Shown here: in pieces, positions 5,696 through 47,794 of the stretch
Layout: every line of letters begins with the position of its first letter
How positions within the stretch are numbered: position 1 is the first letter of the stretch
From: Patescibacteria group bacterium
Lineage (GTDB): Bacteria > Patescibacteriota > Patescibacteriia > Magasanikbacterales > GWA2-37-8
Length of the DNA stretch: 64,000 bases
Assembly: GCA_028705565.1 (NCBI GenBank)
Contig: JAQWDH010000001.1
Location: forward strand, 20,363-84,362
Reading direction: 5' to 3'
Notes under the pieces: generated by a model
The model's input: the letters and a program-made list of their open reading frames with translations, nothing else
What the model was told of the DNA's origin: nothing
The model's database searches: none
Made by a program: the position numbers and the translations under genes

Positions 5696-5830
5696 GTCTG
5701 TTTGTCTGTCAGATGGTCTAGGGTCTACAGTCTATGGTCTGCGGTCAATGGTCTGCGGTCAATGGTCTATGGTCAATAGTCCACTGTCTATAGTCTATAG
5801 TCCATCGTCCAAAATAGTCCATCGTCCAAA
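5696..5830. repeat. Degenerate tandem GTCYAYRG-type repeats (GGTCTATGGTCTGCGGTCAATGG...) between the two tRNAs
   Basis: Read directly; related tracts at 18361-18470 and 36340-36375. Confidence 0.6.
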
Positions 5831-6197: not shown

Positions 6198-9100
6198 TTA
6201 TCCTCCTTGCGCGGAATTGATTTTTTTCTCAGTCCACGCTTTTGTTTTTATATGAAAAATACCTGTTCCTTTTTTGAGTTTTAGCGGTTTTAAAATTTCT
6301 TCCGCGTATATTTCTTGCAGACGGATAATTGCTTTTTTTGTAAGAGTTCCAAAATATCCGGATATTATTCCTTCGGGATAAATATCTTTGCCCATTGATT
6401 TAAGAAATATTTGCAGATATTTTACATCTTGTCCAACCGCGCCTCTCCACAAAAATCTTTCAAAAGAAAAATTATCCGGAATGCCGAGTGTTGTTTTTAA
6501 AGATGAGGAAACGGTTTGAATCGTTGAAGACGTCAAAATTGTTGAAGAAGCGAGATTGATATCTTTTTCAAGAGTTGACGTGGACAAAGTTGATGTCGTT
6601 GATGTGGCTGAACTTTCCCCGAAAACACCGTAAAGACCGAAATTTTTTGTTTTGGATGTTATTTCATTCGCAAGAGTATTGTCGCTTTTAAGAGGAACCC
6701 ATATTTTTTTTGTTTCGTCCCAACGATAAATTTCCATAGCGTTTTTTTTGATTTTACCGTTCTTTACCAATTCCTCATTGTAAGTAAATGAAAGTTTCAT
6801 TTCGTTGTTAATTTTTTCAATTTCTTTTCCTCCGACAATAGCTTTAATTTCCGAAACAATATCCCCAAGGATATTAAGATTGGTCGGGAGGGGGTGATTT
6901 TTTATAATTTCCATCGGGTCCAAAGTTATAATTTCCAGAACAGCGGTGCCGACAATACTTTGCGGCAGGAATTTTATAACGCCGGTCGCTCCGGATTGAA
7001 ATATTTTTTTCACTTCTCCACCGAGGTTTTCCGTAATGTTGCCAGAACCGGAAGATGATGATGGCGGTATAATGCCTCCACCTCCGCTGATAATCGCGAT
7101 TGTCCATGTTGATGTTGATTGCGTCTTGTTTCCTGCCTTATCCACGGCTTTTACATACCAAGTATGATTGCCGTTTCCGATTTTTGAAGATACGGTTTTT
7201 GAAACGCCGGTAAGATTATCGTCTTTCAAAACATTATCCACATAAAGTTCATAATGGTCAAAATCCGCATCAGACACGGCATTCCATATAAAAGTTGGCT
7301 GTTCATTTCCCAATGTTGAATAATCGCTTGGAGAAGATAATACAAAAGCGGACGGACCTTCGGTGTCTTCGGCCACGGTAAAAGTTTTTGCTGAAAATCC
7401 TCCGTTGTAAGTGAAAGTGATTTTACCGGCGGAGTCGGATTGGTAGGAATTAAAATGAGAACCGTCAACTTTTATTGAATACCATGTATTATTTTTTGAA
7501 ACAGCCACAACATAATCAATCGTGGTCGTGGAAATTGTGCTGGATGCCGTCCATTGGTCGGTATATCCGTTGGAAATGTCGCTGTCATTAAAAGCCAAAG
7601 TGATTTCTCCAATGGAAGGAATAATTTTTATTGTGTTTGTCGCGGCAGTGCCGAGTGTTAAACTTTTTGTGCTGGAAACATTTACAGTAAGAAGATTCGC
7701 CGCTACATTCATCCAATCCCACTCCGAAGTTGGCAAAACATTAAAAGAAGTTGAAAAGCCGCGCGTGGTCAAATCAAAATTTGCGTTGGTGGATGTTGGC
7801 GCGACATTTACAGCGCGAGTGGTGGAAGCGTTGGTTCCGGAAGTGTCACGGAGGTAAACAGTGTATTCATTGCTGCCTTCAGTTAATCCGGAAAATAAAA
7901 TAGACGGATTGCTGTAAACGCTTGCGTTGTAGGAAGCGCGAATCTCATCTTGTGAAAGCGCACGTTTCCAAACTCTTACTTCATCAAGCAAACCCTTGTA
8001 ATAAGCATACGCGTTGGAGCTTGGAACCGCGCCGTTTGTCCATCTGCCTAACTGGCTGTATCCATCATAATAATCGCATATATTTCCGGTTTGACTTACC
8101 GAGTCCTCTAAAATTCCGTTAAAATAAAATTTTATTGTCGTTCCATCGTATGTGACCGCCAAATGATTCCAAGTTGTGGTTGAAATATATGATGTGCTGC
8201 TTACAATCGGCCAGTCGGTGTTGTTCATGCATAATTGCGCCGCGGCTTCGGCGCGTATATCATTTTCGCCCAAGTCGGTGTAATCGGATTTCAAATACAT
8301 TTGGTATTGAGGAAAGTTGGCGATAAATGTGATGTTGTAATCAGAATCCACGGAAGTCGGTTTTATCCACGCTTCCACTGTCAAATCATCTCCTGTCATA
8401 TCAGTGGATGAAGGGCCGGTTAAAGAAACAAAGTCATCAATACCGTCAAAAAGCAAAGCGTTTCCGAATTTTCCTGCCGCCCATTGCGGTAAAGTTGTAT
8501 TCTTATAAATATGAAAACTGTCTCCGGTGGCAAAGCCGGTGAGCGCGGATGCCAAAGTAATGGTTTTATCCGTTTCGCTGGTCGCCGTATAATCGCTGAT
8601 AGTCGTGGTTGAACCATCCGCAGCCCCGGAAGTCGCTTCAAAAATCCAATTGTTATAAAAATCGTTATTTGTGCTGAGAACTATATAAGATGTTTCTTTT
8701 ATAACAGATTCCGTGGTGCCGGCATCGGCAGTGCCGTAATCGCCATAGTCAAATGTTCCTGTATGTCCGGCAATACTATCAGACACGGAAGTTCCGGAAG
8801 TTTCGTCAAATTTCCAATATCCTATCGGTTTGTTATCCCCCCAAGTAATGAACATACTTGAATCACCGGTGGAAGAGATCGTCATATTCAAAAGAGTCCA
8901 ACTTCTGTTGATATATGAACTATTATATTCAGTAGAAGAAGCGAAAGCGATTGACAGGCGAGCCGGCGTGCATAAAGAAGTGTCAACCGATAAACAATCA
9001 TCACGGCATCCGAGCGTTCCGCCCGTGTAGCTATAATCAACGCAAACAGCGTTTCCTGTGTCGTTGTCATCGCACACCTCGCCGGTTTCTTTGACTCCGT

Positions 9101-11988: not shown

Positions 11989-13431
11989 TTAAGGTTGAGC
12001 AACCGGATTGTTTGATTTAGGAGGGCGAGATATTATTTCTTTTATTGTTTCTTTGGAAATAATGTTGAGAAGCAAGGCTAAAACACCATAAATTATTATC
12101 CCAAACGCGATTGATAAGACGATATTCATCGGTTGAAGGAGATAAACCGATACGCCCATTGTCAAACTCGCGAGAGATATCTTGAAAAAAGTTTTAAAAC
12201 TTGGCCAAAATCGCGCGAAGCGATTAACCGTAATCATTAAAAATAAACCGGCGTAAATTTCAGAAAAAACAGTCACCATCGCCGCGCCATAAGCGCCGTA
12301 TTTCGGGATTAAAAACGCGTAAGCGATCGCGCTTAAAATCGCGTCGGAAAGATAAATCCAAATCACATTTTTTTGTCTGTTTATCGCCAAGGCCAAATAT
12401 CCAAAGACATTTCCAAAAGCAGTGCCAACAATGGCGATGCCGAGCAGTGCGAGTATTTTACCGGAGTTTACGAATTCGTTGCCGGCAATAAGTTTCATAA
12501 TTGGAGTCGCGAGCGTAATAATACCGACAGCCATTGGTATAAGCAACATCAAGATTAAATCAAAACTTCTTTGGTAATGGAGCTTGAATTCATCGCGAAG
12601 ATTTTGCGACCAAGCGCGCGCGGTAAGAGGCAGCATTATTCCCATTACCATGGCGGCAACCTGTATTACTATTTCAGTGACGCGATACGCGGCGCCTGCT
12701 AATCCAACTTCGCTTTGCGAAACAAATAGAGGCAGTAAAATTCTTCCGCCTTGCAGATAAACGGCGTTGAAGATAATTTCAATCGCCATCGGCCAAGTTT
12801 TATAATAAAGCGCGCGTGATATTCCCCAATCAATTTGAAAACGAATTTTTTGACTTTTGAGCCAAAGAAAAACAGTATAAATTAAAGATGACGTTGAAAC
12901 AATCGCCATCATCGGCAAAAATCCATCGTAATTTTTATAAGCAATGGCGAAGATGCCGACAAGCATTGTCGCTCGGGATAAAAATTCTCCGATAACCTGA
13001 ATGTGCATTTTTAATTTTGTTTGATAATATCCGACAAGCACTTGATTCAAAGCAGTGCTGAAAAAAGAAACAGAAAGAATGGCCGCGGCGATTTTGACCG
13101 GAGCTGGATATGGAAAAAACAGGATTAAAATCGGAGACAAGCCGTTGAAAAAAAACGCGGTTAAAAATCTCCATGTAAAAAGAGTGTTGTAAATTTTTTG
13201 TTTATCAAATTTTTCTTCAGAAAGCATGCTCGCGGTATTGGCTGTAAATCCGAAATCGTTCGCCACCGCGATAAATTGCAAAAAACTGCTGGCGGTCACA
13301 AACCAGCCGAATTTTTCCACGCCCAAAGAGCGGGTCATCAAAGCCACAATTAAAAGCCCGATTCCCGTGTTTAGCGATTTTCCGGCAAGTTGAATTGCCG
13401 TGTTGAAAGCGATTTGCCGTTTTAGAGACAT
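11989..13431 (-). CDS. Polysaccharide biosynthesis protein / oligosaccharide flippase (Wzx-like, MOP superfamily)
   Basis: About 12-14 TM helices, typical length and hydrophobicity. Start placed at MSLKRQIAFN; the ORF-track N-terminus (VIGHWSL)n is a translation of the upstream heptanucleotide repeat. Confidence 0.6.
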   Translation of the reverse strand: MSLKRQIAFNTAIQLAGKSLNTGIGLLIVALMTRSLGVEKFGWFVTASSFLQFIAVANDFGFTANTASMLSEEKFDKQKIYNTLFTWRFLTAFFFNGLSPILILFFPYPAPVKIAAAILSVSFFSTALNQVLVGYYQTKLKMHIQVIGEFLSRATMLVGIFAIAYKNYDGFLPMMAIVSTSSLIYTVFLWLKSQKIRFQIDWGISRALYYKTWPMAIEIIFNAVYLQGGRILLPLFVSQSEVGLAGAAYRVTEIVIQVAAMVMGIMLPLTARAWSQNLRDEFKLHYQRSFDLILMLLIPMAVGIITLATPIMKLIAGNEFVNSGKILALLGIAIVGTAFGNVFGYLALAINRQKNVIWIYLSDAILSAIAYAFLIPKYGAYGAAMVTVFSEIYAGLFLMITVNRFARFWPSFKTFFKISLASLTMGVSVYLLQPMNIVLSIAFGIIIYGVLALLLNIISKETIKEIISRPPKSNNPVAQP

Positions 13432-13488
13432 AAAATAAATCCCAAATCCCCTGCCTACCGGTTTACATACCGTAGGTATGCAGGCAGG

Positions 13489-13580
13489 CAATGACCAATG
13501 ACCAATGACCAATGACCAATGACCAATGACCAATGACCAATGACCAATGACCAATGACCAATGACCAATGACCAATGACC
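13489..13580. repeat. Tandem heptanucleotide repeat (CAATGAC/GTCATTG) x ~13 at the 5' end of the flippase gene
   Basis: Read directly; in frame with the flippase ORF as (VIGHWSL)n. Confidence 0.9.
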
Positions 13581-18360: not shown

Positions 18361-18470
18361 AACAAAGTCCACTGCTTGTTACGGTCTATGGACTATGGTC
18401 TGCGGACTATGGTCTATGGTCTATAGTCTATGGTCCAACGTCCAACGTCCACAGTCCACGTCCGATTTCC
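18361..18470. repeat. Degenerate GTCYAYGG / GTCCAACGTCCA tandem repeat tract
   Basis: Read directly; same family as 5696-5830. Confidence 0.6.
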
Positions 18471-18641: not shown

Positions 18642-20753
18642 ATGATGGTCAAAAAAGAAAAAAAACACATCAAAACCGTGGAAAAAAGAAACGGTGGTTT
18701 GGATAAATTCAATCCGAAAAAAATTTATGACGCGATTTTTAAAGTGCTCACGGCAACTGACGCCGGCGACAGCAAGCTTTCGCGCAAACTTACGCGCGAA
18801 GTCGTGTCTTTGTTAAACCGTCGTTTTAAAAAGAAAGAATCACCGAAGATTGAAGACATACAAGATACTGTGGAAGAAGTTTTGATGCTGAATGATTTGT
18901 TGGATTCCGCGAAGGCGTATATTATTTATCGCGAACAGCATCGCAATATGCGCGAAGCCAAAGTCGCGACAGACGAAGCCATTGATTTGGTCGGGCAGTA
19001 TATCGGCGAGTTGAGTTGGGATGTGAAAGAGAACAGCAACATGACATATTCTTTGCAGGGTTTGAATCATTACGTTTCTTCTTATGTGGTAAAAAAATAT
19101 TGGCTGAATAAAATTTATCCTCCGGAGATTCGCAAGGCCGGACAGGACGGAGATTTTCATTTGCATAATTTGGATATTCTCGGCACATATTGTTGCGGAT
19201 GGGATTTATATGATTTGCTCGCGCGCGGTTTCGGAGGCGTGTCAGGAAAACTTCAATCCAAACCGGCGAGCCATTTGCGTCCGGCTCTTGGACAAGTTGT
19301 AAATTTTTTCTATACCTTGCAAGGAGAATCGGCAGGGGCGCAGGCGCTTTCAAATTTTGATACTTTGCTCGCTCCTTTTATCCGTTATGACAACTTATCT
19401 TACAAAGAAGTAAAACAGGCGTTGCAGGAATTTCTTTTCAATTGCAATGTGCCGACCAGAGTCGGTTTTCAAACGCCGTTCACCAACATTACTTTGGATT
19501 TGAACGTGCCGGGGCATTTGAAAAATTTGCCGGTGCTTAAAAGCGGAAAACCGCAGAAAGAAACATACGGAGAATTTCAAAAAGAAATGGATATTTTGAA
19601 TAAGGCGTTGGCCGAAGTTTATTTGGAAGGAGACGCGGCCGGTCGCGTATTCACTTTTCCGATTCCGACAATAAATATCGGCAAGGATTTTGAATGGGAT
19701 AATCCTAATTATAACGGTATTTGGGAAATGACTGCTAAATACGGCATTCCATATTTCGCCAATTTTATCCATTCTGAAATGAAGCCGGAAGACGCGCGCA
19801 GTATGTGCTGTCGTTTGCGTCTGGATAATCGCGAACTTTATAAACGCGGCGGAGGACTTTTTGGCGCGGCTCCGCTTACGGGCAGTATCGGAGTTGTTAC
19901 GGTTAACTTGCCTCGCATAGGTTATTTGTCAAAAACAAAAAGGGATTTTTTCAACCGTTTGACAAAAATTATGGATTTGGCGAAAGAGTCGCTGGAAATT
20001 AAAAGAAAAATTTTGGAGAATTTTGTTGAAAAAGGACTTTATCCTTATTCCAATTATTATCTCGCCAACGCCAAAAAACAAAGAGGAGTATTTTGGGGCA
20101 ATCATTTTTCCACAATCGGACTTATCGGAATGAATGAGGCGCTTTTGAATTTTTTGGGGAAAGACATCTCCACGAAAGAGGGGGTGATGTTCGCTTCGGA
20201 GGTTTTGGATTTTATGCGCGACCGATTGGTAAAATATCAAAAAGAAACAGGCAGTCTTTATAATTTGGAAGCGACTCCCGCTGAAGGCACTTCGTATCGT
20301 TTGGCTTTGAAAGATAAACAAAAGTATAAAGATATAATCACGTCCGGCGAAGCAGAACCGTTTTACACAAATTCAACGCAATTGCCGGTTGATTTTACAG
20401 AAGATTTGTTCGCGGCTTTAAAATTACAGGATGATTTGCAAGTAAAATATACCGGCGGAACCGTGTTTCACGCTTTCATCGGAGAAAAATTGGTTGACAC
20501 GAATTCCGTAAAAAGTTTAGTGAGGAAAGTTTTTGAAAAATTCCGTTTGCCTTATTTTACTTTAACTCCGACTTTCAGCGTTTGTCCCGTGCACGGATAT
20601 ATCGCAGGCGAACATCATAATTGTCCGTTGTGTCCGAACGCCCAGCCGTGTGAAGTGTATTCACGCATCGTCGGTTATATTCGTCCCGTAAGCCAGTGGC
20701 ATAGGGGCAAGCAGGAAGAATTTAAGATGAGAAAAACATTCGCGCCGTGTTGA
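18642..20753 (+). CDS. nrdD: Anaerobic ribonucleoside-triphosphate reductase (class III RNR)
   Basis: N-terminal ATP-cone, C-terminal Cys4 zinc ribbon and glycyl-radical motif RIVGY; followed by the activase. Confidence 0.9.
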   Translation: MMVKKEKKHIKTVEKRNGGLDKFNPKKIYDAIFKVLTATDAGDSKLSRKLTREVVSLLNRRFKKKESPKIEDIQDTVEEVLMLNDLLDSAKAYIIYREQHRNMREAKVATDEAIDLVGQYIGELSWDVKENSNMTYSLQGLNHYVSSYVVKKYWLNKIYPPEIRKAGQDGDFHLHNLDILGTYCCGWDLYDLLARGFGGVSGKLQSKPASHLRPALGQVVNFFYTLQGESAGAQALSNFDTLLAPFIRYDNLSYKEVKQALQEFLFNCNVPTRVGFQTPFTNITLDLNVPGHLKNLPVLKSGKPQKETYGEFQKEMDILNKALAEVYLEGDAAGRVFTFPIPTINIGKDFEWDNPNYNGIWEMTAKYGIPYFANFIHSEMKPEDARSMCCRLRLDNRELYKRGGGLFGAAPLTGSIGVVTVNLPRIGYLSKTKRDFFNRLTKIMDLAKESLEIKRKILENFVEKGLYPYSNYYLANAKKQRGVFWGNHFSTIGLIGMNEALLNFLGKDISTKEGVMFASEVLDFMRDRLVKYQKETGSLYNLEATPAEGTSYRLALKDKQKYKDIITSGEAEPFYTNSTQLPVDFTEDLFAALKLQDDLQVKYTGGTVFHAFIGEKLVDTNSVKSLVRKVFEKFRLPYFTLTPTFSVCPVHGYIAGEHHNCPLCPNAQPCEVYSRIVGYIRPVSQWHRGKQEEFKMRKTFAPC

Positions 20754-20785
20754 AAGGGGCGGGCAGGATTAGTATGGATCTCTGT

Positions 20786-20851
20786 TGTCATTCCCGCGAA
20801 AGTGGGAATCCATTTGCGATTGTTTGGATCCCCGTTTTCACGGGGATGACA
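20786..20851. repeat. MITE-like element TGTCATTCCCGCGAAAGTGGGAATCC ... GGATCCCCGTTTTCACGGGGATGACA
   Basis: Inverted arms read directly. Confidence 0.65.
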
Positions 20852-20914
20852 ATTGCGATCGTCCGAATCCCGACATGGTCGGAATGGCGACACATTACTT
20901 ATTAATTTCGTTTT

Positions 20915-21616
20915 ATGCTTATCGGCGGGTTGGAAAAATTAACCCTGATTGACTATCCCGGGAAAGTCGCGGCTACGGTTTTTACTTCAGGCTGTAATTT
21001 TCGCTGTCCGTTTTGCCACAATCCGCGTTTAACGACAATTTCGGAATTTGAATCGCCGGCTTTTTCCGAAAAAGAAGTTTTGGATTATTTGAACACGAAC
21101 AAAGATTATTTGGAGGGCGTGTGCGTTACGGGAGGGGAGCCGTCTTTGCAGGCGGATTTAAAAAAATTTTTGGCTGAAATAAAATCGCTCGGGCTTTTGG
21201 TAAAATTGGACACGAATGGAAGCAATCCGGAAGTTTTGGAAAATTTATTGGCGGAAAGATTGGTGGATTATATCGCCATGGATGTGAAGTCGCCTTTGGA
21301 AGAAGAAGCGTATAATTATTTTTTACCCGGTTTGAATTTTGAAAATATCGCGCGTTCGGTGGATATTATTAAAAATTCAGGCGTGGATTATGAATTTCGC
21401 ACCACGGTTTTTCCGTTGTTGGCGGAAGAAGACATCTTGGAAATCGCCGAATCGCTCGCCGGTTCGCGCGCTTATTATCTCCAACGTTTTTCCGATGAAA
21501 ATGAATTGATGGACGAAGGGTTGAGAGGTAAAAAATATTTGCAAAGGGAAGATTTGGAAAATATCTGTGAAAAAATAAAAGACAAGTTTGATTATTGCGG
21601 AGTGAGAAACGGATAA
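20915..21616 (+). CDS. nrdG: Anaerobic ribonucleotide reductase-activating protein (radical SAM)
   Basis: CNFRCPFCHN radical-SAM cluster motif; gene order after nrdD. Confidence 0.85.
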   Translation: MLIGGLEKLTLIDYPGKVAATVFTSGCNFRCPFCHNPRLTTISEFESPAFSEKEVLDYLNTNKDYLEGVCVTGGEPSLQADLKKFLAEIKSLGLLVKLDTNGSNPEVLENLLAERLVDYIAMDVKSPLEEEAYNYFLPGLNFENIARSVDIIKNSGVDYEFRTTVFPLLAEEDILEIAESLAGSRAYYLQRFSDENELMDEGLRGKKYLQREDLENICEKIKDKFDYCGVRNG

Positions 21617-21687
21617 AACAAAAAAAACGAGTAAAAAAAGAACCCACCCTCGGCGATTATGTTTAAATCGTCAAGAGTGGGTGTATT

Positions 21688-21727
21688 GGGTCAAACAATT
21701 CTTTTGGATGGCCTTGTTTGACACGAC
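21688..21727. repeat. Hairpin repeat copy 1 (GGGTCAAACAATTC...GGCCTTGTTTGACAC)
   Basis: 9-bp stem GTCAAACAA/TTGTTTGAC; three copies within 640 bp. Confidence 0.7.
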
Positions 21728-21736
21728 TATTTTTTT

Positions 21737-21880
21737 TTATTTTTTCTCTTCTTCTTCTTCTTCTACATCCTCTTCGTCTTCTTCTACTACTACTACTACT
21801 TTTCTTTCTTCTTCAATTTTCTCCAGCTCTCTTTCGAGAGCTTTTTCCCATTCTTTAAAATCATAATATTCTTCACTCAT
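21737..21880 (-). CDS. Possible small acidic protein (MSEEYYDFKEWEK...EEEEEEKK)
   Basis: ORF with a purine-rich stretch upstream (aaaggaaaaaaaagag); low complexity, may be spurious. Confidence 0.2.
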   Translation of the reverse strand: MSEEYYDFKEWEKALERELEKIEEERKVVVVVEEDEEDVEEEEEEKK

Positions 21881-21894
21881 CTCTTTTTTTTCCT

Positions 21895-21960
21895 TTCCGC
21901 TTTTAAAGCGGATTTGTTGTTGGGTCAAACAATTCCTTGGGATGGCCTTGTTTGACGCGG
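21895..21960. repeat. Hairpin repeat copy 2, preceded by a CCGCTTTTAAAGCGG hairpin
   Basis: About 65-bp unit shared with copy 3. Confidence 0.7.
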
Positions 21961-22249
21961 TTAAGAACAATGGATGGTTATTATATTAAAGAAAGAGATC
22001 TTTTGATTTTATGCATCCTTTGTTCTATAATATGACGTATTATCTTCTCTGTTATTTTTATATTGTCCATATCAGGAAACGGGGGTGTATGCCCCGCTAT
22101 AATAGACATACAATATAGGTCTATTATAGTATATATAAAATTTTTTTCGTCCTCCTTTTCTTGTGAAAAAAAATTTTTATATTCATTACACTTTTGTTTC
22201 CCCTCCTCCCTGTTTTTTTTGTTATGGTTTTTTCTCATCCTTCCTCTCT

Positions 22250-22320
22250 CTTCCGCTTTTAAATAAAGCGGATTGGTTGTGGGTCAAACAATTCCAGTAT
22301 GGCCTTGTTTGACGCGACAA
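22250..22320. repeat. Hairpin repeat copy 3, preceded by a CCGCTTTTAAATAAAGCGG hairpin
   Basis: Same unit as copy 2. Confidence 0.7.
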
Positions 22321-22593
22321 TAAAATCCCGAATAATATCGGGAGTAACATTTTTAAATTTTCAAAGTTCTTCTGTTTTCGTCCTTTCGGACTCATCAGTC
22401 CAGATACACATCTGGAGAACAGGGGGAAGTTTTTTTAGAGAACTTCCGAAACTCTTTTATTTTTTTGAGGCTCTGCTTCCTCGGGGCTCTCCATTTGCTT
22501 AAGGCGCAAACGGGGACAAAAACCTTTTACCCATATTTTGACGCTGGTGGATTTTCCAGCAACTCACTTATGTGAGGATTGTGCGACTACCGG

Positions 22594-22896
22594 CTAGTCG
22601 ATCAGGTCCCCGACAGTGTACTTGTCACCGTGGGCGATCGCCACGACATACTTTGATAGCTTCGGGTCAAAGCATGCCACCGCCTGGTAGCGGTGTGCCA
22701 GCTTGTGTGCCAGCACCATCGCTACCGGCAGTGAAGCCGGACCATTAATCCGGATCACTTCGCCGCCGAGTTCTCCAAGCTTGGCCATTTCGTCTAGACG
22801 CGCTTCGGCGTCCTTGACGATCTGGTCGTTCTGGGCCGGCGAACCGAACCCGATTTTCAGCGTGCCCTCGGTGAGGACGATGTTGTATGTACTCAT
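22594..22896 (-). CDS. Hypothetical 100-aa protein in a GC-rich islet; tentatively Csx3/Crn3-like (unverified)
   Basis: GC ~55% against a ~45% background. Good RBS (AAGGAGAA). Central motif VIRINGPASLPVAMVLAHKLAH; family assignment is from memory only. Confidence 0.55.
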   Translation of the reverse strand: MSTYNIVLTEGTLKIGFGSPAQNDQIVKDAEARLDEMAKLGELGGEVIRINGPASLPVAMVLAHKLAHRYQAVACFDPKLSKYVVAIAHGDKYTVGDLID

Positions 22897-22975
22897 TGCA
22901 ATTCTCCTTTGCCGTTTTTTTCACCATTAAACGGCATTTTTTATTTTTTTTCACCAGTAGTGGTCTGATAAAATA

Positions 22976-23560
22976 TTATGTTTTTTTGGTAAGCTCGACG
23001 AGAAAACTCGCGAGCACTTTTATTAGCGGTCTTTCGGCAATCTTTTCACCTCTTTCGAGGTGATGAACTGATCCCCGAAGGATTCCGTCTTGGGCAACGC
23101 CCTCAACTTTATCCTCCGTCCCGTGATAATCCGAATGAATCTCGGCAATCACGGTCAGACCACCGACTTTCTTGGCGAATTCGCGCCACTCCGGCATCTT
23201 GCTGGTGTCGCCAGCGAGGATAACCATGTGAGTGGCCCCCGAGCAGATTTTTTCATTTTCAACAGAGGTTATACCTCCAATATCAACGAGCGTCAGCTCG
23301 AGCGAGCACTTCTCGACCGAAGTCTTGATGCGCTCTACAAATTCCGGCGTGAATTTAGCTTTATAGACCGCCTTACACGCCGCCGCGAGTTCCGGATTTT
23401 GGTTCACAGTTTCCTGGAACCAGGCCCCTTCGCCGTCCGGACAAGCCGTGATGACATAGGGGTAGGGGGCTCCGGGGATTGCGCGGATGGCCTGTTTCAG
23501 CCCCTCGCGCATGCAACTCTTACCGGACCTTGGCGGACCGGCGAGAACAACTTTTATCAT
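22976..23560 (-). CDS. P-loop NTPase (194 aa) in a GC-rich islet
   Basis: Walker A LAGPPRSGKS at the N-terminus, Walker B-like hhhhD (HMVILAGD); GC ~52%; operonic with the 100-aa gene. Confidence 0.6.
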   Translation of the reverse strand: MIKVVLAGPPRSGKSCMREGLKQAIRAIPGAPYPYVITACPDGEGAWFQETVNQNPELAAACKAVYKAKFTPEFVERIKTSVEKCSLELTLVDIGGITSVENEKICSGATHMVILAGDTSKMPEWREFAKKVGGLTVIAEIHSDYHGTEDKVEGVAQDGILRGSVHHLERGEKIAERPLIKVLASFLVELTKKT

Positions 23561-23847
23561 TTTTTCTCTCCTTTCCGTTTCGCCATTGGCCGGCGATCGC
23601 CAGAAATCGTATTTTGCGACCTCTCACGAATTGGTTTGTTAATAACCCTCTCGTGATAGGTCGCAGACTTAAATATAAATTTTTCAAAGAACACTCAATT
23701 ATAGCATATTTTGGCGATTTTGTCAAGGGTTTGGTTTGGCTAAAATTAGCCAAAAAGAAAAAACCCACCAAATGCGATGAGTTGAACATTTAGACTGTTT
23801 TGGGCTTAAATGGTTTAGTACAAGCCCAACCATCCGATTTATTTTTG

Positions 23848-23929
23848 TGCCCGGAGCCGGAATCGAACCGGCACGGATTGCTCCATTGGATTTTAAGTCC
23901 AACGCGTCTACCAGTTCCGCCATCCGGGC
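23848..23929 (-). tRNA. tRNA-Leu (anticodon TAA), long variable arm; CCA not encoded
   Basis: Minus-strand GCCCGGATGGCGGAACTGGTAGACGCGTTGGACTTAAAATCCAATGGAGCAATCCGTGCCGGTTCGATTCCGGCTCCGGGCA; 7-bp acceptor, anticodon loop CTTAAAA. Confidence 0.8.
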
Positions 23930-24033
23930 ATTTTCTTGATAAATTTATATCATAAATAAAAAATGAAATCAAGTTTTTGTATTAAAAAAGGCGGAGAATG
24001 GCGTCCGCCGGATATTTTTCGTAAATTCAGGTT

Positions 24034-24228
24034 TTAGTTTTTTTTAATTTCCTTCCCGCATTTAGTGCAGTATTTTTCGTGCGGAAATATTAAAGAGCCG
24101 CATATACATTTAGGGTCGGGTGTCTCCCCGAGTTTTTTTCCGCACTGATCACAATAACTGTCAGAAAACAAAAATTTTTCATTTTCTTTATTTCTTTTGC
24201 ATTCTGTATTTTCGCATACTTTTGCCAT
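24034..24228 (-). CDS. Small zinc-ribbon protein (multiple CxxC pairs)
   Basis: CENTEC...CDQCGKK...CICGSL...CTKCGKE. Confidence 0.45.
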   Translation of the reverse strand: MAKVCENTECKRNKENEKFLFSDSYCDQCGKKLGETPDPKCICGSLIFPHEKYCTKCGKEIKKN

Positions 24229-24341
24229 TATACTTCTCCTTTTAAAGAACTAAACTTAAAAAAAGTATATATAATTTTTATTTTTTTGTCAATGCGCGTT
24301 GCGCGCGTGTAAGTAGTTGTTTTTTTTGGTATAATAGAATT

Positions 24342-26138
24342 ATGGCAATGAATGGAAAATTTATCAGAGGATTCGCGTTACTGGAGGTGGTAGTCGCCAC
24401 AGCCGTATTTTTATTGTTCGCGCTCGGTGTCTATGGAGGAACCCAGCTTATATTTAAAATCGTTTATCAATCGCGCATGCGAATTTTGGAAACTTCAATT
24501 TTAAGCGAGGAATTGGAAGTGGTTAGAAACTTAAAATTTGACGAAGTCGGCGTTGTCGGCGGAATACCGGACGGAGTTTTAGAGCATGAAAAAACCGTCA
24601 CGCGCAACAATACGATTTTCAATATTACAACCACGGTTCGCAATATTGACGACCCGTTTGACGGCATCATCGGCGGAACTCCGAATGATACCGCGCCGGC
24701 GGATTATAAATTGGCGGAGATGTCCATAATTTGTTCCAACTGCAATCAGCAAGAGCCGGTGATTTTAAGCACGCTTGTGTCCCCGAAAAATTTTGAAGGT
24801 GAAAGCGACAACGGCGCTCTCTTCGTTCATGTTTTTGATATGAACGGGTTGCCTGTAGTCGGAGCGAACATTCATATAGAAAACACGAACGCTGAGCCGG
24901 ATATTATTATCAATGAAGTGACGGACAATGACGGAATGTTGCGCGTGATAGATACGCCCACCGGCACTTTCAGCTATAATATCACCGTGAGCAAATCCGG
25001 ATATTCAAGCGATTACACAATTTCTCCGACATCGCAAAATCCGTATCCGACCAAATTGCCTTCCACCGTGGCAAGCCAATACATTACTGAAATTAATTTT
25101 TCCATTGATCATACGGGCAATATGCTTGTAAAAACTTTAAGCCCGTCGTGTTCAGCTTTGGCGAGCAAAACTTTCAGCATCTACGGCAATAAAATAATAG
25201 GCGTTGACCCGACAATTTATAAATTTGACGGTTCGCATATTACAGACGGTTCTGGCGAGAAAAATTTTGTCAACATGGAATGGGACCATTATTATTTAAG
25301 CGCGTCCGGCACGGCTTACGACCTCGCCGGTTCAATACCTATGTCGCCGGTACATTTAACTCCCGGTTTAAGCCAAGATGTTTCTTTAATTTTGCGCGCT
25401 CACACAGACAACTCGCTTTTGGTAAAAGTAAAGGATGCCGGAACCGGTCTGCCGCTTTCAGATGTTTTCGCGCGTTTAACAGGAACCGGATATGACGAAA
25501 GTTTATCAACGGATTTGGGTTATACTCGCCAGACAGATTGGTCAGGTGGAGGAGGGCAAAGCGATTTTATAAATGAAAATCAATATTTCATAGACAATGG
25601 AAATTTGGAAACCGATTCTCCGGATGGAGATTTAAAATTAAAAAAAGTAAGCTCGCGGTATTTAACGAGCGGCTGGCTTGAGTCGTCAACTTTTGATTTG
25701 GGAGCCGGCGTTAATTTTCGCAATATAATTTGGGAGCCGCTTGCTCAGCCGGAAGACACGGGAGTCAATTCCATTCTTTTTCAAATCGCGACTGACAACT
25801 CTCCGAATCCGGCATCGTGGGAATTTATCGGTCCGGATGGCGCTTCCACCACTTTCTACACCACGACTTCCACTTTAATTTATAACGGTCATAACGGCAG
25901 AAGGTATATGCGTTACCGAGTTTATTTAAGCACGGAAGACGACAGATACACGCCGATGTTGTCAGAAGCCGCGTTCACTTTTACGAACAATTGCACTCCT
26001 CCGGGTCAAGTTTTTTTCTACGGTTTTTCATCAGGAAATTATAATTTGGAAGTAAGCCGTTCTGGTTACAGTTCAAGCAGCGGACCGTTGGATATTTCCG
26101 GAAATATGGATGTGGTCGTTAATTTATCGCCGAGCTAG
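24342..26138 (+). CDS. Large prepilin-type protein (type IV pilin-like N-terminus)
   Basis: N-terminal class III signal KFIRGFALLEVVVATAVFLL (G/FxLxE cleavage/methylation motif); long beta-rich C-terminal domain. Confidence 0.6.
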   Translation: MAMNGKFIRGFALLEVVVATAVFLLFALGVYGGTQLIFKIVYQSRMRILETSILSEELEVVRNLKFDEVGVVGGIPDGVLEHEKTVTRNNTIFNITTTVRNIDDPFDGIIGGTPNDTAPADYKLAEMSIICSNCNQQEPVILSTLVSPKNFEGESDNGALFVHVFDMNGLPVVGANIHIENTNAEPDIIINEVTDNDGMLRVIDTPTGTFSYNITVSKSGYSSDYTISPTSQNPYPTKLPSTVASQYITEINFSIDHTGNMLVKTLSPSCSALASKTFSIYGNKIIGVDPTIYKFDGSHITDGSGEKNFVNMEWDHYYLSASGTAYDLAGSIPMSPVHLTPGLSQDVSLILRAHTDNSLLVKVKDAGTGLPLSDVFARLTGTGYDESLSTDLGYTRQTDWSGGGGQSDFINENQYFIDNGNLETDSPDGDLKLKKVSSRYLTSGWLESSTFDLGAGVNFRNIIWEPLAQPEDTGVNSILFQIATDNSPNPASWEFIGPDGASTTFYTTTSTLIYNGHNGRRYMRYRVYLSTEDDRYTPMLSEAAFTFTNNCTPPGQVFFYGFSSGNYNLEVSRSGYSSSSGPLDISGNMDVVVNLSPS

Positions 26139-30672: not shown

Positions 30673-30714
30673 ATGAATTATGAATTATGAATTATGAATA
30701 ATGAATTACGAATG
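30673..30714. repeat. Tandem heptanucleotide (ATGAATT) x ~6 spanning the start codon of the first pilin-like gene
   Basis: atgaatt atgaatt atgaatt atgaata atgaatt acgaatg, read directly. Confidence 0.85.
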
Positions 30715-40783: not shown

Positions 40784-41776
40784 ATGTCAAAAATAAAAAG
40801 AATTATTATTGGTGTTCCAGCAAGGAACGAAGAATTAACTATAACAGAAAGCCTTGGCTCTATTTATCGATCAATGCTCTATAGTGGTAGAGCCGAAATG
40901 GTTCTCGTTGTTTGTATAAATGGCTGTAAGGACAGAACACTAATTTTAGCGAAATCTTTTCAAGAAAAGCACCAGGATATTAAATTTGAAATTATTCAAA
41001 GTGGTGAAGGACTCGTTAATGCCCAGCGAGAAATCGTCAAAAAATATCCAGCAGATGTTTATGTATTTCCGGACGCAGATAGTACGATAGATGAAAAATC
41101 AATTGAGCTCCTTTTATTAAATCTAGAGAATCATTCCGAGTGTATTGTCGCTTATGCCAAAACTATCACATTGGAGAATCAGTATAATAAATCTATTTTT
41201 CAAAAAATCGGCTTGTTGTATGATTCTCAAAAAATTTTAACTCCACGATATTATTTTCATGGACGGTTATTTGCGACGAAAGAATGGTTTTTCCCTGAAA
41301 ATAAAGAGATTTTAGGTAGAGCGATGAAGAATAGTTATACGCGAGAGCTGCTTAAATATTCTGAGAAAAATATTTTTCTTTATGTTGACGATATTTTTAT
41401 GTCCAGTTATATTTTAGATAAGTATGGCCAAAGGGCAATAAAACAAATTGAAGATGCGCACTGCTTTTCCTATACCGTAGGTTCATTTCATGATTGGCTT
41501 AATACTTATCGTCGAAGAAATATTGAAATGGAAAAAATGTACCGTTGGTTTCCCGAATATAATTATCTTTGGCCGTTGCTTAATAGAAAAACAGACTGGC
41601 AAAAATGGCCGAAGGCTTCATTGGTTGATAGATTACGATGGATGGTCTTTTTATTTATGAAGATGATTTTTTATGTGTATCTTAATATAGAATTACTGCT
41701 TGTGAAATTTAACTCATTTAAACCAAGAGGACAATGGCAGGTTACTGCCACTACAAAAAATGAAATACATCAATAA
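40784..41776 (+). CDS. Glycosyltransferase (GT-A fold, GT2-like)
   Basis: IIIGVPARNEE...VLVVCINGCKDRT resembles the GT2 N-terminal pattern. Confidence 0.4.
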   Translation: MSKIKRIIIGVPARNEELTITESLGSIYRSMLYSGRAEMVLVVCINGCKDRTLILAKSFQEKHQDIKFEIIQSGEGLVNAQREIVKKYPADVYVFPDADSTIDEKSIELLLLNLENHSECIVAYAKTITLENQYNKSIFQKIGLLYDSQKILTPRYYFHGRLFATKEWFFPENKEILGRAMKNSYTRELLKYSEKNIFLYVDDIFMSSYILDKYGQRAIKQIEDAHCFSYTVGSFHDWLNTYRRRNIEMEKMYRWFPEYNYLWPLLNRKTDWQKWPKASLVDRLRWMVFLFMKMIFYVYLNIELLLVKFNSFKPRGQWQVTATTKNEIHQ

Positions 41777-42566
41777 ACTTATTTTATTTGATATTGATGG
41801 TACGCTTACGGTCAAAGATCGAAACGTATTATTAACCAATCTTAAAAAAGTAATCGGTCTGTATAAGGATAGAGGAACTTTATTTGGTATTAATACCAAC
41901 AGACCAATTAAAGATGCTTTGTCATTGTATCGGGCACTTAAGCTTAATGGTCCGATTATTGTTGAAGATGGCGCTTATTACAAAGTGAATATGTCGATGC
42001 CTTCAAAAGTTACAGTAAGAGGAACTCTGAAACTTAATAGACAAATAACCAATTTCTTGCGAAATTGGTCAAAAACAAAAATTGGTCGCAAGTTTACTTT
42101 TAAGGTGAGTGACAACAAGGATTATCTTTCAAACAAATGTATTTCCGCCCTGATATTGATTACTCCCCAAAGAATTTTTACAGCGAGTATATACATAAGG
42201 ATTCGAGGTAAAAAAAACATCAAAGCTTTACAGGTAATATATAAGTTGCTTCAAAAAAAATTTCAAAATAAGTTTAAACTAGTAATTTTTAAAAAAAATT
42301 TATTGCAGGGTAAAATTCTTATCGGTAATTTGAAGACAAATCGTTTCAATACCCTTCATCAAATCGGATATAAATTTTTTAAATCCCGTGATATGCTATT
42401 AATCAGCGATGATGAGTGTGTACCGCGTGTTATATCTGATCCCAAAATTCATTTTGCTTCTGTTAGTAATGGAACAGCGGAATACAAAAAGCACTGTACA
42501 TATATTGCAAATCAAAATGGAGCAAATGGAATCATTTGGCTTGTAAAAAAATTTTTAGAATCGTGA
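41760..42566 (+). CDS. HAD-superfamily hydrolase-like protein
   Basis: LILFDIDGTLT motif I; remainder divergent. Confidence 0.5.
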   Translation: MKYINKLILFDIDGTLTVKDRNVLLTNLKKVIGLYKDRGTLFGINTNRPIKDALSLYRALKLNGPIIVEDGAYYKVNMSMPSKVTVRGTLKLNRQITNFLRNWSKTKIGRKFTFKVSDNKDYLSNKCISALILITPQRIFTASIYIRIRGKKNIKALQVIYKLLQKKFQNKFKLVIFKKNLLQGKILIGNLKTNRFNTLHQIGYKFFKSRDMLLISDDECVPRVISDPKIHFASVSNGTAEYKKHCTYIANQNGANGIIWLVKKFLES

Positions 42567-42578
42567 TTTTATATAAAT

Positions 42579-43208
42579 ATGGATATAGAAAGGTTAAAAA
42601 ATGCACCGGAGATAAAAGAGGTAATTCCAAAACGCGAGATTGCCTTTGCTTTTATTAAACCGGATTTTCTGGAAGACCTGCCGGTAATTGAAACTATTTT
42701 ATTAGAACATGGCCTAGAGGTTATATACCGCGACAAGGTTCACTTAAATGAAATGGCTGTGGATAGTATATATAAAGAAAGTAAAAACGAGCACTTTTAT
42801 GATACAATGAAAAAATATCTTACTACACATGAAGTGATTGTTTTGATGGTTGGTGGCAAGGGCTTGGAAGCGCAAAAAGTTCTTCTAAACTTGAAAAAAA
42901 CAGGCGACAAGAATGGTATTATTCGAGAACGGTTACAAAAAGAGCCTCCTGTGAAACAAGAGGACGTAGAATTGTGGGAAAGAAAAGAGCACCCTAATCA
43001 AGACGAAGTTTCTATTCTGCTTACTCAAAGTAATGTAATTCATACTGCTGATTCTACTGAAGAAGCTTTGGCTAGCTTAAAGTTAATTTTTGGTGATAAA
43101 TTTGAGGATATGAAGAAAAAAGGCAATCTTCCCGCAGAATTATGGGACATCTTTGAAAAAGATAATACCTTCGCCACTCCATCATATTCATCGGAAATTA
43201 ACAAATAA
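42579..43208 (+). CDS. Nucleoside diphosphate kinase-like protein
   Basis: IAFAFIKPDFLED...VIYRDKVHL...VIVLMVGG...NVIHTADSTEEA parallels the NDK fold motifs, including a His at the catalytic position. Confidence 0.45.
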   Translation: MDIERLKNAPEIKEVIPKREIAFAFIKPDFLEDLPVIETILLEHGLEVIYRDKVHLNEMAVDSIYKESKNEHFYDTMKKYLTTHEVIVLMVGGKGLEAQKVLLNLKKTGDKNGIIRERLQKEPPVKQEDVELWERKEHPNQDEVSILLTQSNVIHTADSTEEALASLKLIFGDKFEDMKKKGNLPAELWDIFEKDNTFATPSYSSEINK

Positions 43209-43248
43209 TTATATTTGATAATTTAAGTCATTAAATATTTTAATATAT

Positions 43249-43743
43249 ATGAATCAAAAAGAAACTTTGGTATTTGATGGTAGAGAGGTTTTTTTAGAAT
43301 GGACTGAATCTAATTCTATCCCGAATAATATTAGAATTTCACAAGTTGTGGGGTATTGTATTGATAATGCTGGTAAGATATTAATTGTTAAAAATAAAAG
43401 AGGATGGGGTTTTCCCGGTGGACATCCAGAAATAGGGGAAAAACCCGAAGATACTTTGCGCAGAGAGGTAGCCGAGGAGGCCTATGTTACTTTAAAAGAA
43501 CCAAGGCTTATAGGATATATGGAAGTGAAAGATCCACAAAATGAATCTATCGAGGGCACTCATTATATTCAATTAAGATACTTGGCAAAAATTGAAACTG
43601 TTAATGAATTTAAAAAAGAATTTGAAACTTCAGAAAGAGATTTTGTTGATGTTAACTCATTGTCTCAATATATATCATGGATTAATTTTCCAACTGGAGA
43701 AGGACAAATTGAGACACTGGTAAGATATATTGCAGAAAAATAA
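43249..43743 (+). CDS. NUDIX hydrolase
   Basis: Nudix box GWGFPGGHPEIGEKPEDTLRREVAEEAYV. Confidence 0.75.
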   Translation: MNQKETLVFDGREVFLEWTESNSIPNNIRISQVVGYCIDNAGKILIVKNKRGWGFPGGHPEIGEKPEDTLRREVAEEAYVTLKEPRLIGYMEVKDPQNESIEGTHYIQLRYLAKIETVNEFKKEFETSERDFVDVNSLSQYISWINFPTGEGQIETLVRYIAEK

Positions 43744-43752
43744 AATATTCAA

Positions 43753-44880: not shown

Positions 44881-45736
44881 TTCTGCTGGGGCCAAAGTTT
44901 TGATAACGTCAACGGACTTTAATATAAAAAAACTAGAACAATCTGAGTTTTTACAAAGATATGTACCAAATTGTAAAATATTATATGACTCAGTGTCTGC
45001 TGTGGCTAATATCACACTTAAAACTGGAAAACCCGATTTTTTTCTAAAATATCCTAAAGCAAAATACACTAATATTTTTTATGAAGATAAAGATATTGTT
45101 TCTTTGATAGAATTTTTACTTGAAGGCGTTCGACAAGAAACTGGTATCTATTGTTTGCATTCTTCTAGCACTGTCATGAATGGGAAAAGTATTATTTTTT
45201 GGGGCAACGCGAGTGGAATGGGCAAAACACGATTGGCACTTACTCTTAGTGAAAAATTTGGCGCTCAAATGTATTCAGATGAAAAAACCTTATTAAATCT
45301 TCAAGAAAATATTGTCATTGGTGGAATAGCTTCAATTTATTTATCAAAACCCTATCTTCAAGATAAATTTGGTAACGCTGATTTTTATAACTTTACGCAA
45401 CCTGGACAGCCTTTTTCTGTGGGTTTTTTTGTTTACCCTCATATTGATGAAGATAGTAAATCAATCTATGTTGAGCGTTGGGATGCAAATAAATTTAGCT
45501 GGCACTTATATGAGGAATTATCTAGAAAAATACGGGGTACATCTCGAAGAATATTTAATAACACCTTGCCAGTATCTTCTATAGATTCTATACCAATTGC
45601 TACACAAAGATCCTTGGCGGTGGAGGCTTATGTAAAATCAACTCCTTGCTATTATATGAGGGGTAGCGAAGTTTTAATTTGTGAAAATATTTTAAAATTG
45701 TGCGATAAATTTAATGAAACAAAAAAAACTTTTTAG
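44855..45736 (+). CDS. Hypothetical protein with P-loop (HPr-kinase C-domain-like?)
   Basis: GNASGMGKTRLALTL resembles the HprK/P-loop carboxykinase motif; weak. Confidence 0.3.
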   Translation: MNKRRIIIDSAGAKVLITSTDFNIKKLEQSEFLQRYVPNCKILYDSVSAVANITLKTGKPDFFLKYPKAKYTNIFYEDKDIVSLIEFLLEGVRQETGIYCLHSSSTVMNGKSIIFWGNASGMGKTRLALTLSEKFGAQMYSDEKTLLNLQENIVIGGIASIYLSKPYLQDKFGNADFYNFTQPGQPFSVGFFVYPHIDEDSKSIYVERWDANKFSWHLYEELSRKIRGTSRRIFNNTLPVSSIDSIPIATQRSLAVEAYVKSTPCYYMRGSEVLICENILKLCDKFNETKKTF

Positions 45737-46488: not shown

Positions 46489-46600
46489 GAATTTACCAAT
46501 TTACAATTTTCAATTTACAATCAACTCCAATTATCAATAATTTATTGAAAATTGCCGCATTGTAAATTTATTGAAAATAATTGAAAATTCCAGTGTTATG
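46489..46600 (+). other. 23S intervening sequence 1 (AT-rich CAATTT-repeat hairpin in the E. coli helix ~130-150 region)
   Basis: Insertion relative to conserved flanks GGGGAAACCC ... CTGAATACATAGG. Confidence 0.55.

Positions 46601-47757: not shown

Positions 47758-47794
<37 letters not shown>

Follow-up and report, generated by a model that had tools for sequence, protein, structure and literature searches.

A stretch of 64,000 nucleotides (nt) from a Patescibacteria group bacterium (contig JAQWDH010000001.1; the whole stretch is called the window) carries a two-gene cassette that encodes a Csx3/Crn3-family protein and a MinD-like P-loop nucleoside triphosphatase (NTPase), lies outside any CRISPR locus and bears its own RNA elements. 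Its function is most likely the destruction or sensing of signals of the cyclic tetra-adenylate (cA4) type, outside a CRISPR context. The pairing of Csx3 with this NTPase is already known; what is new here is the split, CRISPR-orphaned form with RNA elements of its own. The window cassette was compared with related loci and contigs, which carry the numbers L001 to L098. It forms a self-contained unit of about 1.4 kb, roughly from 23726 to 22326 on the minus strand, and its genes and upstream neighbour are as follows.

22976..23560, minus strand: gene for the Csx3-associated P-loop NTPase, 194 amino acids (aa), starting MIKVVLAGPPRSGKS
22594..22896, minus strand: Csx3/Crn3-family gene, 100 aa, holding VIRINGPASLPVAMVLAHKLAH
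23847..23929, minus strand: tRNA-Leu(UAA), found by ARAGORN and matching the Rfam tRNA model at 62.6 bits; upstream neighbour and boundary, outside the cassette

The two proteins of the cassette

The NTPase and csx3 genes share the strand of tRNA-Leu(UAA) and lie downstream of its 3' end. A spacer of 79 nt separates them, and an AAGGAG ribosome-binding site (RBS) precedes the csx3 ATG. The original prediction for this DNA had described two open reading frames (ORFs) of 194 and 100 aa, about 80 base pairs apart with a strong RBS between them, located between a hairpin-repeat zone and the 3' end of the tRNA. Both ORFs match exactly, on the minus strand, and the spacing, the RBS and the position were borne out; the repeat zone consists of three copies of GGCCTTGTTTGAC, found only at 21710-22313. 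Plus-strand ORFs at 23090..23656 and 22703..22930 were treated as artefacts of GC-rich coding DNA.

The 100-aa protein has the Csx3 fold. Its match to Pfam PF09620 reaches 27.9 bits (gathering score 21) and spans residues 49-99 only; the PADLOC Csx3 models match it over the full length, with E-values of 2e-27 and 2e-16, and it aligns to positions 1-99 of PADLOC PDLC01045 (E 2.2e-27). With these matches and with its catalytic residues kept, the protein is what the original prediction had suggested, a Csx3/Crn3 relative. The predicted catalytic set, H64, H68, D77, K79 and H89, is invariant or nearly so across 119 homologues. Csx3 of Archaeoglobus fulgidus (AfCsx3; AF_1864; PDB 3WZH, 3WZI, 6YUD, 6VJG) likewise has about 100 aa and matches PF09620, and the roles of its residues H57, H60, D69, R71 and H80 have been described or found essential (PMC7371418). 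Equivalents of H57, H60, D69 and H80 are kept in the window protein: H64, D77 and H89 align straight to AfCsx3 H57, D69 and H80, and the invariant H68 aligns to H61, one residue past H60, so that the second histidine sits one residue later in the helix. The two proteins nevertheless share only 23% identity (phmmer E 0.13), and the window csx3 differs from the A. fulgidus gene in lying away from type III CRISPR and in having an NTPase gene as its constant partner.

The 194-aa protein matches positions 108-285 of the PADLOC Csx3-AAA model PDLC01045 (E 5.5e-58), and a Pfam search of it matched no family. Its fold is of the SIMIBI, MinD/ParA-like type, with a Walker A motif GPPRSGKS and a Walker B/switch II motif DIGG. 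Invariant across its family are GPPxSGKS, DIGG, a CPDGEGxWFQ loop and residues C16, C40, C85, C106, H166 and R170. An AAA+ ATPase was considered and rejected, as the protein has neither the AAA+ fold nor a Pfam AAA match, and a P-loop kinase was set aside in favour of the SIMIBI fold. The partner expected from the sequence alone, an AAA ATPase or P-loop kinase, thus turned out to be a known Csx3-associated NTPase but of a different class. SIMIBI NTPases such as MinD, ParA and NifH act as dimerisation switches. The window protein shares with MinD, ParA, NifH and BioD the SIMIBI fold and the combination of a Walker A motif with a DxxG Walker B/switch II motif. In contrast to them it has just 194 aa and is 9-16% identical in sequence, its P-loop LAGPPRSGKS lacks the deviant Walker A lysine of MinD and ParA (KGGxGK[ST]), and the CPDGEGxWFQ loop and the four invariant cysteines are specific to its own family, for which Pfam has no match. 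That family is small: a search of 1.84 billion proteins gives 578 representatives at E<=1e-3. Some of its members are joined to Csx3, which may stand on either side, and others to a phosphohydrolase domain of the HD or HD_4 type. The function of the "AAA" domain that is partnered with Crn3/Csx3 is given as unknown in published work (PMC12409355, PMC9676260).

Distribution, CRISPR context and horizontal spread

Close homologues fall into more than 1000 clusters for each of the NTPase and Csx3, at 70-98% identity. The survey of loci covered one-genome-per-species contigs and metagenome contigs, and loci with an NTPase identity of 55% or more were called Patescibacteria-type. The split NTPase/csx3 pair occurs in about 30 distinct loci, in the order NTPase-csx3 and occasionally reversed. 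Most are labelled Patescibacteria (Paceibacterota, Harrison-, Taylor-, Uhr-, Berkel- and Magasanikbacteria, Saccharibacteria), and bins of other phyla account for a few contigs. The two genes are neighbours in every Patescibacteria-type locus whose sequence is long enough to tell. The flanks differ from locus to locus and include housekeeping genes, a TrmB regulator, an IS30-like transposase (adjoining the pair in L083), Fic/RadC genes (neighbours in L089) and an HD_4-bpMoxR-VWA set. A search for the same pair at other loci, proposed with the original prediction, has thus returned about 30 of them, in unrelated contexts.

HD_4 genes adjoin the pair in L006 and L089, and in both loci, whose contexts are otherwise unrelated, HD_4, bpMoxR (AAA_5) and VWA genes follow it (L006 9890-13361; L089 8308-11986) as a predicted conflict-system triad. 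On L012, a contig labelled Saccharibacteria, ARAGORN finds a tRNA with anticodon UUA at 6386-6459 ('tRNA-Stop', possibly a suppressor); it lies 1.3 kb upstream of the cassette.

The neighbourhood of the cassette in the window yielded no integrase, cas gene or CRISPR array, and cas genes are never among the flanks of the annotated Patescibacteria-type loci. With a simple array finder, 19 cyanobacterial loci proved to have a CRISPR array within 10 kb, and the sole array candidate among the roughly 30 Patescibacteria-type loci is a repeat of 4 copies in L006, ambiguous and 7 kb away. Apart from this repeat, neither the window nor these loci gave any sign of a link to type III CRISPR-Cas. The earlier remark that no CRISPR or cas genes lie nearby therefore extends to essentially all Patescibacteria-type loci. 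An Rfam match to CRISPR-DR53 at 23034-23068 (E 1.2) falls inside the NTPase gene and was taken as chance.

Among the closest known systems are the Csx3-AAA and AAA-Csx3 fusions (clusters 35 and 67 of Shah et al. 2019; Slr7080; PDLC01045 and PDLC01059), which hold the same two domains. The window NTPase is 37-53% and the window Csx3 35-67% identical to them, and both window proteins match the PADLOC family profile. However, the PADLOC fusions are single polypeptides, whereas in the window a stop codon, the 79-nt spacer and a second RBS stand between the NTPase gene and the csx3 gene that follows it, and the two are likewise separate in all Patescibacteria-type loci. In cyanobacteria a stand-alone csx3 is followed by a csx3-NTPase fusion gene, often on plasmids such as pSYSA (slr7080), beside Cmr genes; an HD gene also lies near slr7080 on pSYSA. 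The cyanobacterial genes show no compositional anomaly, and their 19 loci with arrays compare with none, or one ambiguous case, of about 30 loci of the Patescibacteria type. The fused Csx3 domains that were examined (Nostoc L035 and Slr7080) have lost the catalytic histidines, whereas the stand-alone cyanobacterial Csx3 proteins and those of Patescibacteria, including the window protein, keep the catalytic residues.

The composition of the cassette is foreign to its surroundings. The mean GC content of the whole window is 39.8%, and the remaining 50 ORFs average 0.391 in GC (sd 0.055, max 0.471) and 0.376 in GC at third codon positions (GC3; sd 0.080, max 0.503). The NTPase gene has a GC content of 53.2% and a GC3 of 0.585, csx3 58.1% and 0.733, and the two exceed all 50 other ORFs in both measures. 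In sliding windows of 400 nt, values of 0.48-0.55 are reached solely between 22400 and 23600. The anomaly reported earlier is therefore real and stronger than stated, but the background it was set against, about 45%, was too high. In Patescibacteria-type loci with measurable flanks the NTPase gene lies 4 to 28 GC points above them, except in L032, where it lies 5 points below and csx3 is GC-rich; the GC3 of csx3 rises to 0.99 in a 38% GC genome. The neighbouring NrdG has homologues of at most 55% identity outside its own species, against 86-89% identical copies of the cassette proteins in other organisms. Relatives of the NrdD-NrdG pair lack the cassette beside nrdG, and synteny past nrdD-nrdG is lost.

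Since the genes are outliers in GC and GC3, the contexts are unrelated and the cassette is conserved far beyond NrdG, horizontal spread of the cassette is strongly supported by the sequence comparisons, in line with the horizontal acquisition that had been suggested. The cassette has the foreign composition and the variable presence among relatives that a genomic island shows. Could the two genes instead be an ordinary part of the core genome, passed on vertically, with a high GC content that follows solely from amino-acid or expression constraints? Strong purifying selection could explain the high protein conservation, and the first and second codon positions of the cassette genes are likewise somewhat raised in GC. 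But the third position is the most deviant, up to 0.99 in 38% GC genomes, the flanking genes are different at every locus, and neither the NrdD-NrdG relatives without the pair nor the gap between 55% identity for the nearest NrdG and 86-89% for the cassette copies is expected of a core pair. We regard this explanation as extremely improbable and as already contradicted.

The mode of arrival first proposed, a classic island integrated at a tRNA, was not upheld. We found no integrase among the cassette neighbours, no second copy of the 19-nt tRNA 3' end in the 64 kb with up to 3 mismatches allowed, including the direct repeat that had been expected near the far end of the cassette, and no direct repeat within 20500-24500. 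The cassette has its own promoter and terminator, and a tRNA lies within 1.5 kb in just 4 of the roughly 30 related loci. A tRNA-targeted island was therefore rejected: there is no integrase, no att repeat, and tRNA adjacency is rare in relatives.

RNA elements of the cassette and other features of the window

Similarity at the DNA level to other loci extends past the genes into non-coding sequence on both sides, where the following elements lie, listed in the direction of transcription.

23698..23726, minus strand: sigma-70 promoter, TTGACA, 17-nt spacer, TATAAT, with extended -10 TG; 12/12 consensus positions
23561..23692, minus strand: structured 5' leader of about 130 nt, with a long hairpin GCGACCUAUCACGAG...UUCGUGAGAGGUCGC and then a CGCC-GGCCAAU-GGCG hairpin beside the GGAGAG RBS
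22463..22496, minus strand: motif of the 3' untranslated region (UTR), (A/U)GAGCC-NN-[NNGG]-AAGCAGAN-[CCNN], a 4-bp hairpin with a conserved 8-nt loop
22425..22447, minus strand: pre-hammerhead hairpin GGAAG-uucucuaaaaaaa-CUUCC, abutting the 5' side of the hammerhead
22371..22423, minus strand: type III hammerhead ribozyme, CUGUU-C17 / UCCAGAU-GUGU-AUCUGGA - CUGAUGA - GUCC-GAAA-GGAC - GAA - AACAG
22326..22343, minus strand: terminator-like hairpin UCCCGA-UAUUAU-UCGGGA, then UUUUAUU, from a consensus scan and a minimum free energy (MFE) fold

The promoter is the best consensus match in the region, and related loci have promoter-like sites at the same place. The leader that follows it has DNA homology to other loci at about 77-79% identity and folds with an MFE of -43.7 kcal/mol (z = -4.2). 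Its sequence CUGGC..CGCCGGCCGAUGGCGAAG.GGA..GGAGAG is conserved in ten loci, and it occupies the same position in L001, L003, L010, L012, L015, L016, L018, L021 and L089. The two 3' hairpins are conserved in 10 loci with compensatory changes in 5 of 15 pairs, a modest covariation, and the segments GCGACC, GGUCGC and GCGAC(U) allow alternative pairings. The leader may be a cis-regulatory RNA. At the other end, the hairpin at 22326..22343 is the probable end of the transcription unit; a further terminator-like hairpin, at 23762-23783, follows tRNA-Leu(UAA).

The core of the hammerhead is complete, with CUGAUGA, GAA, the A15.1-U16.1 pair, C17 and three stems, and its match to Rfam RF00008 scores 30.3 bits (E 8e-4), short of the gathering score of 48.5. 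Ten copies, picked by a pattern search that requires the stems, served to build a covariance model, which gives the window hammerhead 80 bits (E 6e-23) as the sole hit in 64 kb; with this model, 16 further copies were found in related loci, all on the cassette strand. Compensatory changes occur in 12 of the 15 pairs, and 98.7% of the cells are paired, compared with 31-45% when the partners are slid. Twelve of 16 non-redundant hammerheads are no more than 600 nt from a cassette gene, against an expectation of about 5% (binomial P ~1e-12, shared ancestry ignored), and three copies in L012 enclose csx3 and the NTPase gene. The copies form a tight subfamily in which the stem I loop (A)UGUGUA(U) and the stem II loop G/AAAA are conserved, with a U4C core change in L003 and L015. 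A stem-loop of unrelated sequence occupies the position of the pre-hammerhead hairpin before nearly every related hammerhead. A scan of 10 loci without hammerheads at Rfam gathering scores yielded tRNA, rRNA and group I intron only, and no other ribozyme. Copies of the hammerhead in related loci are located as follows.

L012: 8162-8214, 8959-9011 and 9358-9410
L089: 7318-7370 and 12592-12644
L025: 9814-9870 and 12871-12932
L003: 9040-9092
L010: 7781-7833
L015: 4846-4901
L016: 8555-8607
L021: 4955-5007
L032: 7914-7966
L040: 5658-5710

Hammerheads are known to flank single genes in prophage regions, for example ardA (Perreault et al. 2011, PMC3088659). The cassette copies resemble these in their consensus core with three covarying stems and in their location between or after the short genes of a horizontally mobile unit. 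They differ in occurring in Patescibacteria, in scoring below the Rfam gathering score and in the extra hairpin that nearly always precedes them. A literature search found no published link of hammerheads to bacteria of the Candidate Phyla Radiation (CPR) or to Csx3. Cleavage is predicted between 22417 and 22416. Judging from the sequence, the ribozyme would cut in vivo after C17, leaving an upstream mRNA that ends just past the protective hairpin at 22425..22447 and a compactly folded downstream product with a 5'-OH start.

The 3' UTR motif occurs on the gene strand of 7 distinct Patescibacteria-type loci (8 hits when the close relative L089 is counted separately), after csx3 or between the genes, and lies within about 230 nt of a cassette gene in 6 of the 7. 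Its stem covaries (GAGG/CCUC, GCGG/CCGC, AGGG/CCCU, GUGG/CCGC), it has an upstream pairing partner, and Rfam has no match for it. Likenesses to signal recognition particle RNA, group II intron domain 5 and twister were considered and, without Rfam support, rejected. A micro-ORF encoding (M)(E/V)S(P/H/Q)xEA(E/D)P is also disfavoured, as it has no RBS, its continuation is not conserved, L016 lacks the start codon, and all eight hairpins stay paired through radical codon changes. The copies outside the window are as follows.

L006: 9125-9158
L016: 15229-15262
L022: 1291-1324
L026: 10691-10724
L027: 6603-6636
L031: 4591-4624
L089: 7233-7266

A motif (A)GTTCTTTGAAAA occurs at 23692, 24250 and 5518 (minus strand), and after the hammerheads in several loci. 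Unrelated genes also carry GTTCTTTGAAAA behind their -10 boxes (at 24250 and 5518, minus strand), and we therefore rejected it as a boundary repeat of the cassette; in these organisms it seems to be a common feature of 5' UTRs or of the points where transcripts start.

Several other features were observed in the window. Next to the cassette, at 21686-22316, a unit of two hairpins (GUCAAACAA..UUGUUUGAC, then CCGCUUU..AAAGCGG) is present in three copies and nowhere else in the window (fold z = -3.5); each unit precedes a small AT-rich minus-strand ORF without a family match (85 aa at 21981-22238; 77 aa at 21737-21970). Low-GC blocks at 40784-45736 and 60812-63820 (GC 0.26-0.37; GC3 0.20-0.31), with glycosyltransferase- or sugar-modification-like genes, are a second compositional anomaly, opposite in direction to that of the cassette. 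The 23S rRNA gene at 46342-50806 spans 4465 nt against a 2925-nt model, which indicates insertions, and an insertion ORF at 49641-50252 (plus strand) reads as a putative LAGLIDADG homing endonuclease (..LLGDGNL.., ..FMDDGSK..). A perfect 117-nt tandem duplication (1.8 copies) at 50865-51078 overlaps the start of the 5S rRNA gene (51025-51131). Heptanucleotide tandem repeats lie at 13489-13580, 5713-5802, 18383-18435 and 30673-30713, all intergenic apart from the CAATGAC array. The latter (13 copies, 100% identical, 13489-13580) lies at the 5' end of a minus-strand ORF at 11989-13575, in which it encodes VIGHWSL repeats, and is a candidate site of slipped-strand phase variation.

Function of the cassette

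We propose that the cassette is a mobile, self-contained unit that acts outside CRISPR loci, in which Csx3 binds and cleaves a messenger of the cA4 type and the MinD-like NTPase is coupled to it as a switch, output, assembly or metal-loading factor, a proposal to which we give a little better than an even chance. The cassette's own consensus promoter would drive transcription through the structured leader, and the type III hammerhead would cut the 3' end of the mRNA so that the upstream product is capped by a stem-loop. Csx3 dimers would stack around a cyclic tetra-adenylate-type messenger bound between them, and the messenger would be cleaved at the His/His/Asp/Lys/His site with a divalent metal, in the manner demonstrated for A. 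fulgidus Csx3. The NTPase, which is fused to Csx3 in cyanobacteria, would dimerise on NTP like other SIMIBI proteins; it could be the switch or output that Csx3 controls, or could drive Csx3 to assemble or disassemble, or load it with metal. That the two proteins are coupled is suggested by the fusion of the same domains elsewhere (PDLC01045, PDLC01059, cyanobacteria) and by the adjacency of the genes. A link to nucleotide metabolism is suggested by the fusions of the NTPase to HD or HD_4 domains, by the HD_4 and HD neighbours and by a 3'-phosphatase of the PNK type in a phage contig (described below), and this recurrent company of HD/HD_4 and 3'-phosphatase genes fits a pathway that degrades oligoadenylate products.

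Several points weigh against this proposal. The 100-aa protein reaches 22.3 bits against the NCBIfam Crn3 equivalog TIGR02579, short of the cut-off of 55.4. AfCsx3 R71 is replaced by the nearly invariant K79, and the AfCsx3 cA4-contact residues S44 and R46 are not conserved, their places being taken by N51 and P53 or by R49 and N51, depending on the alignment; in the contact loop S44-G45-R46 the invariant G52 can be aligned to G45, and the HMMER alignment uses the other register. With Lys for R71 and without S44 and R46, the ligand could differ from cA4. Neither the window nor any of the roughly 30 Patescibacteria-type loci showed a cyclic-oligoadenylate synthase (Cas10, CD-NTase), and CPR bacteria rarely carry CRISPR-Cas and are nearly devoid of it (PMC4742961). 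Deletion of slr7080, the fused homologue, in Synechocystis left plasmid interference unaffected (PMC9676260). The defence or signalling role suggested at the outset is plausible, but removal or sensing of a signal is favoured over a complete defence system, since no synthase was found.

The same chemistry could serve a mobile element rather than its host. As anti-defence cargo similar to AcrIII-1, the cassette would destroy the cA4 of type III CRISPR or related immunity and so protect the element or the episymbiont, instead of resetting the immune response of its own cell. Six IMG/VR viral contigs (L093-L098) do encode a full-length Csx3 of the same clade, at 48-61% identity and at positions 8001-8300 in each. 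One of these contigs holds a portal protein, and another, L097, a tail-fibre-like gene together with PNK 3'-phosphatase (PNK3P) and HD_4 neighbours; there Csx3 forms the N-terminus of a 226-aa protein with an unknown C-terminal region of 125 aa. Catalytic residues are kept in three of the four phage Csx3 proteins that were aligned, with H64 and H68 missing in L093. The strong signature of horizontal transfer, the IS30-like transposase and Fic/RadC neighbours mentioned above, and the hammerheads, since those beside single genes are characteristic of prophage regions and are also found around the anti-restriction gene ardA (PMC3088659), point the same way. A parallel with AcrIII-1/Crn2, phage Csx16 and Csx20 can be drawn, as cA4 degradation outside the CRISPR locus is a possible common role and the window Csx3 clade has relatives in phage contigs. 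AcrIII-1, however, has an unrelated fold (DUF1874 rather than Csx3), and the phage copies of Csx3 come without the NTPase, which was found in none of the IMG/VR viral contigs. Csx3 is absent from 50,697 GenBank phage records, and a published survey covering 28,114 phage genomes lists AcrIII-1, Csx20 and Csx16 but no Crn3 (PMC12409355); nor did we find Crn3 described in phages in the literature consulted. Phage structural genes and integrases are absent beside the cassette, both in the window and at the annotated loci, and the hosts rarely possess a type III CRISPR system to evade. We consider an anti-defence role unlikely.

A different division of labour would make Csx3 the sensor of the signal and the NTPase the real effector or regulator that it switches, with ring-nuclease activity as a timer. 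Shah et al. proposed that the Csx3 domain controls the ATPase allosterically (PMC6546367). In Nostoc L035 and Slr7080 the fused Csx3 lacks the histidines that a separate stand-alone Csx3 keeps, and this loss implies that a purely sensory Csx3 exists in the family; a dimerisation switch is also what would be expected of a SIMIBI NTPase. Yet the Csx3 of Patescibacteria keeps every catalytic residue, the 194-aa NTPase has no recognisable output domain, and the conserved neighbourhood shows no evident target for it, which leaves this arrangement a rather doubtful one. Another scenario concerns RNA 3' ends. Csx3 would act as a Mn-dependent deadenylating exoribonuclease on the leader, the 3' UTR or the hammerhead ends, with the cysteine-rich NTPase as a metal-loading or remodelling factor. 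AfCsx3 was originally characterised as a Mn-dependent RNA deadenylase, according to the citation in PMC7371418, the cassette carries three conserved RNA elements, and the NTPase combines four invariant cysteines with a fold common to NifH, ApbC/Mrp, CooC and UreG, which handle metals or Fe-S clusters. However, later work gives cA4 as the preferred physiological substrate of Csx3 (PMC7371418), the RNA elements occur in just about one third of the loci and so are not obligatory partners, and the metallochaperone idea draws solely on fold class and cysteine conservation. We judge RNA 3'-end processing to be very unlikely.

Extending the proposal of signal destruction by Csx3, the cassette could be a mobile anti-signalling unit shared among Patescibacteria and phages, in which a Crn3-type nuclease and a MinD-like NTPase act against cyclic-oligonucleotide messengers in lineages without CRISPR and expression is controlled by RNA. 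This extension is speculative, and we hold it to be doubtful. Its target would be the immunity of host cells or of rival elements, or a novel signalling pathway of CPR bacteria; the leader would be a ligand- or Csx3-responsive switch, and the GAGCC/AAGCAGA motif of the 3' UTR might be a further functional, possibly catalytic, RNA.

Ring nucleases are usually regarded as accessories of type III CRISPR loci, and this cassette is an orphan case: Csx3 and the NTPase are separate proteins that occur very widely, with high conservation, in a superphylum where CRISPR-Cas is all but absent. The NTPase is MinD-like rather than an AAA+ motor and the Csx3 active site is intact, and the naturally split pair lends itself to studying the role of the "AAA" partner of Crn3. 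A hammerhead tied to a specific protein cassette in Patescibacteria is a rare case, and the leader and the 3' UTR motif are candidates for new RNA motifs. The cassette thus bears on the roles of ring nucleases outside CRISPR and on cyclic-nucleotide signalling in CPR bacteria.

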